A stretch of DNA of 64,000 nucleotides from Chiloscyllium plagiosum (taxonomy: Eukaryota): positions 22,694,600-22,758,599 of the forward strand of contig NC_057726.1 of assembly GCF_004010195.1 (NCBI RefSeq). The letters run 5' to 3'. The translations under genes and the position numbers were made by a program. Shown in pieces: positions 18,061 to 57,935 of the stretch. The notes beneath the pieces are model-generated. The model was not told where the DNA came from, did not search any database, and saw only the letters and a list, made by a program, of their open reading frames with translations. Within the stretch, counting starts at the first letter, position 1. Every line of letters begins with the position of its first letter.

Positions 18061-18343
18061 GAGGACATACCTGTGCAATTTTTCCTAGAGCAGTAGAGGC
18101 TAAACCATTTAATTTATTCTAGGCTCAGTTAGATGGATTGTTGACAGTCAAGAGAGTGAAGGGTGATGTGAGGCACTACAGACATAAAAAGTGGACTTGA
18201 GGCCATGATCCGATCAGCTGTGAATGGCAGAGCAAGCTTTAAGTGCTTGATTTCTGTTTCTAATTCCACTATTAAACATTGAAAGTTTGACAGAGAATAC
18301 AGGGACAAGGAAAGCTTGCTGCAGTTGTATAGAGCTTTGGTGA

Positions 18344-18637
18344 TCAAAGTTTGTGAGAAGATTTGTAGCTCGGGTGCTCGTTGCTGTGGTTCTGTTCGCC
18401 GAGCTGGAAGTTTTTGTTGCAAACGTTTCGTCCCCTGTCTAGGTGACATCCTCAGGTGACACTACAGTGGACAGCTGAAACTGACAACCGGAAGCGGCAG
18501 GGACAGGCCACTATAAATGCCGGAGGAAACACCACAGAAGCGCTTCACAGGAGGCTCCCAAGCACTGAGGATGTCACCTAGACAGGGGACGAAACGTTTG
18601 CAACAAAAACTTCCAGCTCGACGAACAGAACCACAGC
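18344..18637. mobile_element. Fold-back Penelope-type pLTR insertion with hammerhead motif, inserted into a CR1
   Basis: 74-nt inverted arms 18382-18455/18565-18638 (1 mismatch); TSD agctttggtga at 18333-18343/18638-18648. Confidence 0.85.
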
Positions 18638-19894
18638 AGCTTTGGTGAGGTTACATTGTGAAATACAATGCACAGGTTTCCATACCTAAGGAAGATATTT
18701 ATGCCTCAGCGATGATATAGCGAAGGTTCACTAGATTGGTCCCTAGGATGAAATCTAAATGTATTGGGCTGATACTCCATGGAGTTTGAAAGAATGAGAG
18801 GTGAACCCATTTAAACATGAAAGGTTCTAAAGGCACTTGACATGGTGGACACTGACGACAGATTGTATCCTTTTCCTGGAGAATCTAGAACTGGGAGCAC
18901 AGTTGCAGAGTAAGAGATTGACCACTGAGGAATGAAATGAGGACAAGTTGTTCACTCGGAGGATTGAGAATCTTTGGAATTCTCTCTACCAGAGAGTTAT
19001 AGATGCTCTATTGTTCAAGGCTCAGAAGGATGGATTTTTGATCTCTTGGTGAATCAAGAGTTATGGGGAGCAGGGAGGTAAGAGGAGTTGAAGCCCAAGA
19101 TCAGCCATGATGATACTGAATCATGGATTAGTCCCAGCAGGCTGTACTGTCTCTTCATGTTGCCATTTCTGCTGGGCCTGCAATTTCATCATTGCATTTC
19201 TGAGCCTTGGTCCCCAACTCCAAATTCCTTCAAATGGCATGTTTTAAACTGGAGTCAGTGTTAATTGCTTGAGAGACACAAAAACAGTATCTGAATGCAG
19301 TTCTATGGAAAGCTCTTCACTCCCAGCAAATGGCAATTTTAACATTCAGCTCTGGGTAAGGACTGTTCAATTTTATTGGTTCAGGAGGCACACAAGTGAT
19401 TGCCCTATTCACAATCGTTTGAGTGAACATTTCTAATGATTACCCTCTTAACTGGCTCAAACAGATTCCAAACTCTCCCTGAGAGGACATCACAAACTAT
19501 CAGACTCAGATTATCTGTGATGATCTGATTAAAATCCCATGGAAATCCTGAAAGCAGCTGGAAGGGCTGTGAAGTAAGTGCCACTTGCTCATCATCAGCC
19601 GTAGAATCTGGATTATTACGTTGAACATCAAAGATTGTGTATTTTATTGAATATACATATATATTTCTGATTTGCCAATGTCCTCATATTGTTTCATTAA
19701 GACAGTGTGTAAAAACAATAAATAATGAAATCCAGTGGTAGGTGAAATCTGCCACATCCTGCTCTGTGATCTCTGAATTTGAAAGTATGTGTAATGCTGT
19801 GCCTAATAACTTGTGCTGTATTCCTGTCCATATAATTCTCACATGATGTTGTACATTTATGAGAGTATTGAATTTGAAGCAGCACAGACCAGAT

Positions 19895-20025
19895 AGTTCT
19901 GACGAAGGGTTTCGGTCCGAAACATTGACTTTCCTGCTCCTCGGATGCTGTCTGACCTGCTGTGCACTTCCAGCTTCACATTTATTGACTCTGGCTTCCA
20001 GCATCTGCAGCCTTTATTGTCTCCC
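19895..20025 (+). mobile_element. Single-arm PLE pLTR fragment with hammerhead-like core
   Basis: ctgacgaagggtttcggtccgaaacattg followed by the ggatgctg.ctgacctgctgtgc...ccagcatctgcag tail shared with 35397-35527. Confidence 0.75.
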
Positions 20026-21142
20026 AGATACTTCCAACTTTGCTCCTTGATTGGATTGTTAAATCTCTGATGAGGTTACAGTAGGAGCATGCCAAGAGTT
20101 TCGGTGCCCTTTGGAATATAAACAGACGAGCTCAGGTGATTATTTCTGATTGTTGGTTCAGAAATCATCCAGAATCAATTATTCAATTCTTTTACTTCAG
20201 GAGAATAATCCACTCACCTTGTAAAAATGCAATCAGCAAAGAATTGGCACCAAATGGAAGAATGGGATAAGAACCATGAAGAATTGGTCAAATGAATAAC
20301 ATCTTCATGACACTCTGATAAGGGAGAAGTGTTGGATAGCTGGAAGCATGATCTTCCAGAGTTGAAGTGGCTATGAGATGCACAAGCATAATTGATTATG
20401 TGCATATGGGAAACATGTGAACTTAGTGATACCTTGTGATTTAAGGGCCTTTTGCAAAAACTCACACATAACGAGTGAACACTTGGATAACTGAGCAAAA
20501 ATGCTCCCAATATCGGGAGTTCTGTAACCACCAACTGGTAACAGTGTCAGGAGCTAAAGCGAAAACATTAAAACAAAACAGAATGAAGAGAAAAACAGCA
20601 GATTGTAATATTGTATTATAGAAATTCAGTTTTTGGCCTCTTGTAAGCGCACATGATCAGGCGTTATTTAGCACTTCTGTAAGGCATGGTAAGAGAAGAG
20701 ATGCCACAGAAGCCTTTATAGAATCAGACTTCATTTCCATGTGATCTGACGTCACTATGACAGAGTTCCTTCTGTATATGCTCAGTATCTATCGCTCAAT
20801 GAAACCACACTAGTGAATAATTCTTATCAGTTACAGATAAATTGGGGTGGAATTCTTTAATGCGCTCTCTAATAAATGCCTCTTTGTGAACTACATATTG
20901 TGAATTTGTATACATTTTTGTTCTACCTTGGCACTGTAAGATTGAACAAAAAATCCCCATCATCTAAAATACTGGACAAGACCCTGCACTTTTCTAACAT
21001 TTAAAATACTGGACAAAATCCTGGGCTCAGGCTGTGCAAACGCCACAAAACCAAAATGATTTCAGTCTGGGGCTATTGTTCAGCTTGGAAGTTTAATTTA
21101 TACCTCTACTCTAACAATCAACCAAATCTAACACTGTAGATT

Positions 21143-21336
21143 GATGTAGAGGTGCCAGTGTTGGACTGGGGTGGACAAAGTTAAAAATCACACAATACCA
21201 GGTTACAGTCCAACAGGTTTATTTGGAAGTACAAGCTTTCGGAGCACTGCTACCTGACAAAGGAGCAGCGGTCCAAAAGCTTGTACTTCTAAATTAACTT
21301 ATTGGACTACAACCTGGCGTTGTGTGATTTTCAACT
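21143..21336. mobile_element. Older fold-back PLE-derived element (same family as 51560-51795)
   Basis: Degenerate inverted arms aaaatcacaca..ggtt.cagtccaacaggttt / ttggactacaacctgg.gttgtgtgatttt. Confidence 0.75.
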
Positions 21337-21906
21337 CTACACTGAAACTAAATTTTACACCTTGGGCTACCCAGCACAGACAGTATAGGGTCTACACAGA
21401 TGCTGAACATTCAACTTCAATCAAACCCCATTCACAGAGATATAGGACATTTGATGTCAATCAAATACATTCACACATACTCTTAACTATCAGGAAGCCA
21501 ATTGACTTCAAAGGGAACACCAGAAATCCCATGGCAAGCACAGATTTGGTGCGAAGAGGCCACAATCAGTATAATTGCAGGCTCCAATCTCACCTGAATG
21601 AGCTATTCCCCCTAGCAGTAATCCCAAACAGAAGAATTCCAACACCTCTTTCCAAGAGTTATCTCAAGAAGGGGGATCCTGAAAGCAATTCCAAAAACTA
21701 CTGACACAGGCCTGTTCCAAACCAGGGGAACCAATGGCAACCAGCCATGACCAGCAGACCTAAGAACCGAAAGCCTCTGGAAACCATCAACCTGACTGAC
21801 ACCACAAGGCCTCAGACACATCCTGAGGTGAAAACTGGGCCCACAAAACTGCCAGAAAATAATGAAAGCGAAGCAATCACCAAATAATTCCCTTACACAA
21901 ACTACT

Positions 21907-56788: not shown

Positions 56789-56976
56789 TAAAAACTGAAA
56801 GAATTGCGGACGCTGTAAACCAGGGGAAAAAAATTGCTGGAAAGGCTCAGCAGGTCTGGCAGCATCTGTGGAGAGAAATCATAGAGTTCATGTTTCAGGT
56901 TCTGAAGAGTCATTTGACCTTAAATGTTAATTCTGATTTCTCTCCACAGGTTCTGCCAGACTTGCAGAGCTTTTCC
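56789..56976. mobile_element. Fold-back PLE-derived element with TSD
   Basis: Arms ggaaaggctcagcaggtctggcagcatctgtggagagaaatca / tgatttctctccacaggttctgccagacttgcagagcttttcc; TSD aagaaaattttaaa at 56775-56788/56977-56990. Confidence 0.82.
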
Positions 56977-57121
56977 AAGAAAATTTTAAAGACTTCCCAG
57001 CTTCAAGTATTACTAGTCAAATCATCGGCTAGATAACTCAGGTTGAGGTTTGATCACAAGGACATGAGAAACAAACAGAGAAAACTGAGTCATGGTGAAA
57101 TAAACTTGAAATGAAACCTAC

Positions 57122-57262
57122 CAGCTCCTTTAGCTCCCTTTGTCGATCACAGAGCTGTTCATACATTTTCTTTCCAACATCTGTGCTCTCCAACGTGGAG
57201 ATAATTTGAAGTTGTGTGTCATTGTTGTCTATAATGTTGTACTCGAGCATCAAACACAGGAT
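57122..57262 (-). CDS. CMIP: CMIP coding exon ([47 protein letters not shown])
   Basis: 141 nt; acceptor ctctag|ATC, donor CTG|gtaggt; in frame with neighbouring exons. Confidence 0.95.
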
Positions 57263-57521
57263 CTAGAGTTTACAGAAATTGAAGAGTTTTTTTATTGAAA
57301 TGTTACACCAATAAGTGACACCCCTCCCCAAATCTATCCCCCACTCCTTTTCCACACCTCCCTCCTCGCCAAAACCAAATGTGTCAGTGGCTTCACAATT
57401 CGTTTGCTCCTGCTCCTTTCCAAAAAAGCTAACCTTTCATTGTTTTGGGGCCTTTTTACAGCAGCACCTTTAAGGTTCCCTGCCAAGGCTGCTTAAGATC
57501 CAGCATAAACTGACAAATCTG

Positions 57522-57712
57522 CTGTAGTGAGAGTGAGGACTGCAGACGCTGGAGATCTAAGTTGGAAATGTGGTGTTGGTAAAGCACAGCAGGTCAAGCA
57601 GTATCCGAGGAGCAGGAGAACCGACATTGCGGGCATATGAAGGCCTTATGCCCAAAATGTCAACTCTCCTGCTCTTCAGATGCTGCCTGACCTGCTGTGC
57701 TTTTCCAGCACT
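57522..57712. mobile_element. Older fold-back PLE-derived element (35293 family)
   Basis: Degenerate arms around gggcata/tatgccc; probable TSD acaaatctg at 57513-57521/57713-57721. Confidence 0.75.
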
Positions 57713-57935
57713 ACAAATCTGGTGTGGTTCCTCTCTGGTTAAACAATCAGCTCAACAGTTGGTTCAGATGGGTGACATTGGTAACTAAAAGTTGCCTGAT
57801 TTAATATGGTGGCTGATGAATGACACTATTTCTTCTGTGGTCAAAACTGCGTGTTTCTGAAACCATTGAAATGTTACCTAACTTCACCCCTGCCTCCGAT
57901 GCTGGCATAATATGAGGAAACATATTATGAGGAAA

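Follow-up and report, generated by a model that had tools for sequence, protein, structure and literature searches.

Short fold-back inserts in the Chiloscyllium plagiosum genome are an abundant and stereotyped variant of Penelope-like element insertion

Scattered through a stretch of 64,000 nucleotides of the Chiloscyllium plagiosum genome (NCBI RefSeq assembly GCF_004010195.1, contig NC_057726.1, positions 22,694,600 to 22,758,599 of the forward strand; hereafter the window) are short palindromic inserts without open reading frames (ORFs), which a sequence-only reading had attributed to Penelope-like elements (PLEs), either as severely truncated products or as self-propagating, retrozyme-like units bearing hammerhead ribozymes. 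These inserts are a real, abundant and stereotyped variant of a published type of PLE insertion, and their interpretation as a new self-propagating class of ribozyme fails. They are head-to-head pairs of the pseudo-long terminal repeat (pLTR) of PLEs that encode a reverse transcriptase (RT) and a GIY-YIG endonuclease; each pair probably arose a single time, during insertion, through twin priming at the 5' end of the element RNA, and the inserts are likely to be one-off by-products rather than a self-spreading ribozyme. The inverted-pLTR-plus-tail shape has already been published; what is added here is a rule of one tail per pair, a common template for both arms, a fixed 5' boundary, template jumps and a poly(A) site in one family (B).

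Structure of the inserts and the 5' ends of their arms

All eight palindromes of the sequence-only reading (18344, 21143, 27061, 34198, 35293, 51560, 56789 and 57522, named after their starts in the window) were recovered by self-comparison of the window and by repeat finding, as were its three single arms (19895, 43308 and 55472). The shared plan that it described also holds: two pLTR-like units lie in inverted orientation, one arm being longer by an extension referred to here as the tail. The arms fall into several families, as proposed: A (35293, 43308, 57522, 19895 and a PLE relic), B (21143, 27061 and 51560), C (34198, termed C34, 55472 and 56789) and D (18344). The number of about four unrelated families did not stand, since the 35293/57522/19895/43308 and 34198/55472/56789 sets are related, being alike at 88-91% over 33-50 nt, and there are therefore three unrelated lineages. 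Arm positions are numbered with C3, the base that opens the hammerhead core, as 0.

The PLE origin of the arms was borne out by longer copies that carry RT and GIY-YIG sequence and end in arms. Twenty-two RT-bearing copies terminate in an A arm, with the tail present or absent, and in L156, L158, L166 and L173 arm and tail lead straight into the ORF start; the element anatomy, seen in family A only, has arm and tail just ahead of the ORF and repeated at the element 3' end, and partial tandems occur. The family A ORF matches RVT_1 (E = 8e-9 in L057), its closest homologues carry RVT_1 and GIY-YIG, and the nearest named proteins are those of carpet sharks and rays. Arms of C34 lie downstream of RT and endonuclease sequence in L385 and L377, those of D downstream of a GIY-YIG frame with a weak Pfam score (E = 0.03), and those of B downstream of a GIY-YIG-like C-terminus that was read by eye and gave no Pfam hit. 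The reported match between the 35293-family arm and a GIY-YIG PLE relic in the window was found again at 6362-6448 (80% over 87 nt, E = 2e-15); the relic drew no hit from Pfam, the link to PLEs being established via the longer copies. [quoted passage not shown]

A short upstream ORF of 33-42 codons begins inside the A arm (L158:712-830 and window position 35447) and runs on past the point, 116 nt further along, where the main ORF starts; family C has similar first codons. Three ORF-start copies (L153, L161 and L163) are 5'-truncated exactly at the tail end, as if RT had halted where another RT was bound.

Abundance was sampled with eight arm queries in 80 segments of 10 kb, each placed at a round-number position of a large contig and together giving 775 kb free of N. 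The sample holds 263 arms in 208 inserts, 55 of which are two-armed, corresponding to an insert per 3.7 kb and a fold-back per 14 kb, and PLE arm bases make up about 3% of the sampled DNA. A 24-mer of the young A arm has 119,622 exact matches in the genome of 3.56 Gb, and if the sample is typical, about 250,000 hairpins are estimated genome-wide. The inserts had been described as abundant, at roughly one per 6 kb, and abundant they are; the window itself holds 15, or one per 4.3 kb. In all counts, stretches of fetched loci reading N were excluded, and duplicate loci were removed before the one-tail, boundary and single-arm counts.

Two-arm inserts nearly always have exactly one tail. This is the case for 30 of the 32 found in 839 kb of unselected DNA (P = 1e-7), where independent tailing would predict half, as well as for 59 of 62 over the family A loci analysed (some chosen with a tailed query), 39 of 40 D inserts and 16 of 21 B inserts. 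Both arms were copied from one template: in 42 young pairs, the two arms are identical at 110 of 114 diagnostic sites, compared with about 60% after shuffling of partners, and 55 other differences are not common to both arms. Three A>G changes, in the sense of the element, occur on both arms of L023, as expected if one edited RNA had been copied twice. The junctions between arms are distinct in 59 of 62 short A fold-backs, the three repeats being filler-less joins, and fillers consist of short pieces copied from arm ends. Recurrence of junctions between loci had been proposed as the mark of a propagating unit; those observed are locus-specific, and of the two origins first offered, independent PLE insertion products stood and self-propagating retrozyme-like units did not. 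Target-site duplications (TSDs) measure 12-16 bp (median 14 bp), have no fixed sequence and reduce to about 12 bp after removal of junction microhomology (29 inserts); tailed and tail-less ends could not be told apart by their microhomology. One composite, L129:2238-2480, has a tailed B arm head to head with a tailed A arm, with two tails and no TSD, and was not used as evidence for two RNAs.

The description of the inserts as severely truncated is not quite right, since the 5' ends of the arms are not random and stop at a fixed boundary that behaves like an RNA 5' end. Among 100 A arms (at least 80% identity), 48 start at -15 to -1, 36 further inside and 16 beyond -15, only two of the last ending between -60 and -16; 64 arms reach -1 and 48 of them end in -15 to -1, a hazard step of about 30-fold at the boundary. 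The ORF-start copies (29) behave similarly: 11 begin at -7 to +2, 12 further inside (two bounded by N) and six upstream, with four of the 29 extending more than 100 nt upstream as partial tandems. A TATA or TATA-like motif is found about 30 nt upstream of the arm 5' ends in three families, and weakly in the fourth (D). In C34, 18 of 32 core-bearing arms start at -4, with TATAAA at -36; in B, 22 of 60 start at -12 to -1, with TATAAA at -40; and in A, where the mode is -4, TTTATCT stands at -35/-37 and an initiator (Inr)-like motif at -4. Family D has TATAAA at -53 and its mode at -23, away from the hammerhead foot, and thereby separates a boundary set by TATA from one set by the hammerhead. True D truncations are estimated at about 153 at -40 to -30, 209 at -26 to -16 and 105 at -12 to -2 (from counts of 170, 298 and 126, corrected on 30 loci each), an excess that tracks TATA rather than the hammerhead, though it is small. 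A mode at -32 in a D control set proved to be an artefact of a subfamily variant. A splice acceptor was ruled out as the boundary, C34 arms including the AG and fillers showing no common upstream exon.

Reads of a related species show the same edge, with 152 loose ends at -4, these being reads of inserts and not RNA starts. By eye, the base preceding -4 is G in 47, A in 45 and T in 8 of the first 100 matches; at 30 loci with -4 starts, most preceding G's came from the target or the partner arm, and one (L218) looked non-templated. From its place in the sequence, the boundary would be the transcription start, that is, the 5' end of the RNA.

Longer copies carry further traces of this end. In L196 and L205 (TSDs of 16 and 13 bp) an inverted tailed arm is paired with a direct arm running to +482 and +451 of the ORF start; such extended sequence exists only behind the 5' pLTR, and both were therefore built from 5'-end-of-transcript sequence. 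In 11 of 28 analysable ORF-start copies, a piece of ORF whose end lies between +401 and +840 is fused to a direct arm, which in 10 of the 11 starts at -9 to -3, several times via microhomology, TSDs being readable in six of the ten. These joins are interpreted as run-off and a subsequent return to the RNA by a jump; because the copies were picked for holding the ORF start, they do not indicate the usual landing place, and a jump to the 3' repeat is postulated. In family B, poly(A) tails join at +55/+58 (352 and 458 reads, run X19; L146:4735-4755), 12-15 nt past AATAAA, before a GU-rich tract and upstream of both arm ends (+83 and +120), so that a polyadenylated B transcript would lack the 3' priming sites. 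No poly(A)-junction reads were found for family A among the matches listed. Fold-back junctions are present in 17 RNA reads.

Minimal hammerheads, claimed for the best-preserved copies, were detected with a strict descriptor in five arms of the window and at 65 sites in 839 kb, compared with 0-1 in each of five Markov shuffles. The core of the 34198 family is UUGACAA rather than CUGAnGA, C34 replacing C3-G8 by U3-A8. Covariation of stem II, read across families by motif, had been suggested as a check, and pairs indeed differ between families with pairing kept (A, GC GC GC CG; C34, GC GU GC UA CG; B, GC GC AU GC CG; D, GC UA CG), which points to selection of the hammerhead in the parent elements and not in the inserts. 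In two-arm inserts the cores lie on opposite strands, head to head; folding predicts that the fold-back hairpin of 100 bp buries the core, and the hammerheads of inserted fold-backs would be passengers locked in the hairpin. Rfam returned no hammerhead family, only sub-threshold microRNA matches due to the hairpins. A peak of arm ends at the hammerhead cut site (+28) is weak at best: 399 exact matches begin there, compared with 3,868 at -4 (the patterns being unmatched in length and CpG content), about 40% of the 399 are explained by 2-nt microhomology as judged by eye, and in the set from +24 to +35 only 3 of 30 loci start at the cut site.

Possible origins of the inserts

The favoured mechanism is that a single RNA is twin-primed, that the cDNAs run off at its cap and that their ends are then joined. 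A PLE protein, probably a dimer, would cut both strands about 12-13 bp apart; one 3'-OH would prime at the tail site and the other at a tail-less site about 35 nt upstream, and each cDNA would run 90-130 nt to the capped RNA 5' end just upstream of the hammerhead, yielding a strong-stop product. The two cDNA ends would then be joined via 0-4 nt of microhomology or templated filler, and a cDNA that jumped to another RNA position instead would give rise to a long arm.

Several points weigh against this mechanism. The shared arm variants are also explicable by hairpin copying or later gene conversion, and in vitro the two start sites show no strand preference, which does not in itself predict the one-tail rule (PMC11167929). 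Tailed queries were used to choose loci L001-030 and L361-390, and truncation patterns to choose those of D. As to the RNA end, the TATA of family A is non-canonical, D shows only a 1.4-2-fold excess near the predicted start and seven of ten unselected D arms are long; no site where many molecules begin was seen in two read alignments, which were poly(A) single-cell data of the related species and ill-suited. The main A arm lacks AATAAA, only 23 of 51 B arms retain it, and the source of the B poly(A) reads may be a small number of host transcripts that end in a B arm instead of PLE RNA.

The one-tail rule and the identity of the arms, private variants included, would also be accounted for if the 3' end of a cDNA primed at the tail site folded back and copied itself, with an endonuclease or protein block stopping the self-copy at the tail boundary; fillers copied from nearby arm sequence would fit self-priming attempts, and self-priming has been proposed for palindromic junctions of rotifer PLEs (PMC3846280). 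Such a hairpin origin is rather improbable, since TSD-flanked tail-less single arms exist (nine, compared with four tailed), and the tail-less site thus primes alone. In addition, long tail-less arms are paired with short tailed ones (L076, L200, L206, L207 and the window relic); the tail is absent from tail-less cDNA, and that of the short arm could therefore not have been copied from its long partner. Both arms also peak at -4 independently, and 20 of the first 100 matches at -4 have a loop-less palindrome sequence (by eye). A likewise unlikely alternative is twin priming at the 3' pLTR within read-through or tandem transcripts, the boundary arising from RT stalling at a folded or protein-bound hammerhead or from an endonuclease cut. 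In A, B and C34, the 5' strand of stem I does fall at the boundary, partial tandems do exist, and the ATTC at the A boundary recalls the preference of the anole endonuclease for ATT (PMC11167929). However, D has no pile-up at the hammerhead foot, stem I is merely 2-4 bp, the B and C34 boundaries have no ATT, L196 and L205 are made of 5'-end sequence and the B poly(A) site is upstream of both priming sites.

The very high copy number of the young A arm, the conserved and covarying cores and the fold-back junctions in RNA would suit a non-autonomous unit (a retrozyme-like RNA or a mini-element of fold-back form) that PLE protein mobilised in trans, and animal retrozymes have been proposed to derive from pLTRs (10.64898/2026.07.22.740005). 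Self-propagation of this kind is nevertheless very improbable, given the distinct junctions, with only filler-less joins repeated, the placement of cores on opposite strands and not in tandem, the far fewer starts at the cut site than at -4 (with the reservation made above on pattern length and CpG), the same boundary in ORF-bearing copies and the predicted folding of the whole insert into one hairpin that buries the core. Short, palindromic, TSD-flanked inserts without an ORF also have the look of miniature inverted-repeat transposable elements (MITEs) or fold-back DNA transposons, an identity with next to no probability here: in place of DNA-transposon terminal inverted repeats with a fixed short TSD, the ends are asymmetric, the TSDs are long and without fixed sequence, and the arms are PLE termini.

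Beyond twin priming at insertion, PLEs might, tentatively, replicate by a retrovirus-like cycle of strong-stop synthesis and strand transfer primed by target DNA, the fold-backs being failed transfers at hundreds of thousands of loci. The pLTR would then be a functional U3-R-U5, comprising a promoter, an R that leads from the start across the hammerhead to a 3' end set by poly(A) or by the ribozyme cut, and a U5 to the two priming sites; every insertion would open with a pair of short cDNAs made at the RNA 5' end, and transfer of one of them to the 3' R would give long copies and partial tandems.

The genome provides a very large fossil record, with base-level ends, of the PLE steps that follow priming, and this record yields sharp predictions for the existing in-vitro PLE system; the exact ends suggest that, starting from either side of the DNA cut, the element probably copies the initial 100-130 bases of its RNA, which would contribute to explaining how this poorly understood class of elements jumps. 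For the host, B inserts may supply poly(A) sites to transcripts, and fold-back inserts could donate poly(A) signals and form double-stranded RNA in introns.

Inserts in the window

Of the TSDs of 9-15 bp that had been described, those of 11-15 bp at seven inserts are clear and that of 19895 is fair, while those of 21143, 27061 and 55472 are unreadable, only 6-bp matches at chance level being found; for comparison, 1 of 150 random intervals exceeded 10. Three inserts (13161-13310, 27273-27390 and 28431-28540) are new to this survey. The arms at 35286-35388 and 35397-35499 (103 nt) are 99% complementary, with a fold z of -29.7.

5392-6456 (+): 5'-truncated PLE relic of an older family A subfamily, with RT-thumb and GIY-YIG remains from 5408, an inverted tail piece of 12 nt (5396-5407) and the tail-less arm (6362-6448); TSD 5379-5391/6457-6469, 13 bp with one mismatch, read from the sequence
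13161-13310: old C-type two-arm insert, short inverted arm and tailed direct arm; TSD 13152-13160/13311-13319, 9 bp
18344-18637: family D two-arm insert; inverted arm tailed and stopping at the core, direct arm tail-less and extending 105 nt upstream, with TATAAA at -53; TSD 18333-18343/18638-18648, 11 bp
18565-18598 (+): family D minimal hammerhead core to predicted cut site; mirror copy 18422-18455 (-)
19895-20024 (+): tailed single arm of an older A subfamily; TSD of some 7-11 bp (one mismatch at 11 bp)
21143-21336: family B two-arm insert, left arm tailed; TSD not clearly readable
27061-27266: old family B two-arm insert, right arm tailed; TSD not readable
27273-27390: old C-type two-arm remnant, adjoining the 27061 insert
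28431-28540 (+): old C-type single arm
34198-34429: family C34 two-arm insert with the U3-A8 core variant, left arm tailed; TSD 34186-34197/34430-34441, 12 bp
35293-35529: young family A two-arm insert, with a tail-less inverted arm, templated filler and a tailed direct arm; TSD 35278-35292/35530-35544, 15 bp, junction microhomology included
35401-35428 (+): family A minimal hammerhead core to predicted cut site; mirror copy 35357-35384 (-)
43308-43407 (-): single tail-less family A arm beginning at -3, plus a 5-nt filler; TSD 43293-43307/43408-43422, 15 bp
51560-51795: family B two-arm insert, left arm tailed, AATAAA within both arms, core 51715-51743 (+); TSD 51548-51559/51796-51807, 12 bp
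55472-55608 (-): old C-type single tailed arm; TSD not readable
56789-56976: old C-type two-arm insert, left arm tailed; TSD 56775-56788/56977-56990, 14 bp
57526-57712: older family A two-arm insert (57522 above), joined within the hammerhead, left arm tailed; TSD 13 bp with one mismatch

The window also holds other repeats. A 68-bp inverted pair (57829-57896 and 59299-59366, 99%, 1.4 kb apart) adjoins a perfect palindrome at 57902-58027 with 42-bp arms and short duplicated pieces; no hammerhead, TSD or further copy in 839 kb was found, and the structure has the appearance of a local rearrangement, recent and accompanied by templated insertions. A palindrome of 142 bp at 13489-13630, unrelated to PLE arms and with no TSD or other copy in the sample, is possibly an old MITE. 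Dispersed pieces at 1-633, 4162-4551, 14576-14908, 25190-26932, 29766-30508 and 41902-42437, and at 8891-9194, 21906-22215, 24490-24783 and 46922-47595, belong to two further families, one with remains of coding sequence like that of long interspersed elements and the other, of about 300 bp, probably a short interspersed element (SINE).

Comparison with known systems

Judged by title and abstract start, none of the papers listed by searches of the openly accessible literature describes the present model of strong-stop synthesis and twin priming for PLEs, and passages of PMC9004415 offered nothing relevant to it. In retroviruses and LTR elements, minus-strand strong-stop DNA results from priming near the RNA 5' end, giving a short run-off cDNA that undergoes the first strand transfer. 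The order of promoter, start, poly(A) site and priming site in family B is like that of an LTR U3-R-U5, whereas priming would be by target DNA and not by tRNA. In L1 twin priming, two target 3' ends prime one RNA and the arms copy different parts of it, while here both arms copy the same part. As to a SINE head, nothing resembling tRNA, 5S or 7SL turned up in the arms when they were compared with Rfam, no dedicated tRNA scan being made.

In vitro, Poseidon of Anolis carolinensis cuts and extends both strands, and two internal RT start sites bound the tail, near the ORF start; ORF sequence beyond the start sites is needed, hammerhead cleavage is dispensable and a dimer is predicted (PMC11167929). 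The steps after priming are unvalidated in that work, the main text of which describes neither pairing with a single tail, nor run-off at the 5' end of the RNA, nor jumps between template positions, unlike the model proposed here. Arm and tail lead into the ORF start in rotifer and anole PLEs as they do here (PMC3846280, PMC11167929), although in family A, unlike Poseidon, the main ORF starts past the tail, 116 nt after the short upstream ORF begins.

The hammerheads share with the minimal hammerheads of metazoan PLEs a type I minimal core, a bulged base before stem II and a palindromic stem III (PMC4209133). In Schistosoma, the U3-A8 covariant is found, as in C34, and dual minimal hammerheads lie on opposite strands 100-700 bp apart; the circular-RNA model of the same source predicts ends at the cut site, here a minor class, and the part of it drawn on here names no cartilaginous fish (PMC4209133). 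Non-LTR retrozymes are likewise ORF-less, hammerhead-bearing and pLTR-related, with one chondrichthyan genome reported, but they are tandem same-strand repeats (10.64898/2026.07.22.740005), whereas the present inserts are inverted pairs with unique junctions; neither tandem same-strand units nor a recurring whole unit was found.

The closest parallels are the published PLE insertions, in Adineta Pen2a (PMC3846280), the general scheme (PMC8557442) and Penelope of D. virilis (PMC2377424), as far as these sources describe them: there too, a head-to-head inverted pLTR, a tail of 30-40 bp at one end and TSDs of 9-15 bp occur, the pLTR covers the start of the coding region and it contains Inr- or TATA-like motifs. 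The mechanism behind tandem and inverted PLE structures has been called undefined (PMC8557442). Unlike these published elements, the inserts of C. plagiosum mostly have two arms and nothing else, the loci being estimated to number several hundred thousand, and their 5' ends are not freely truncated but halt at a fixed boundary.

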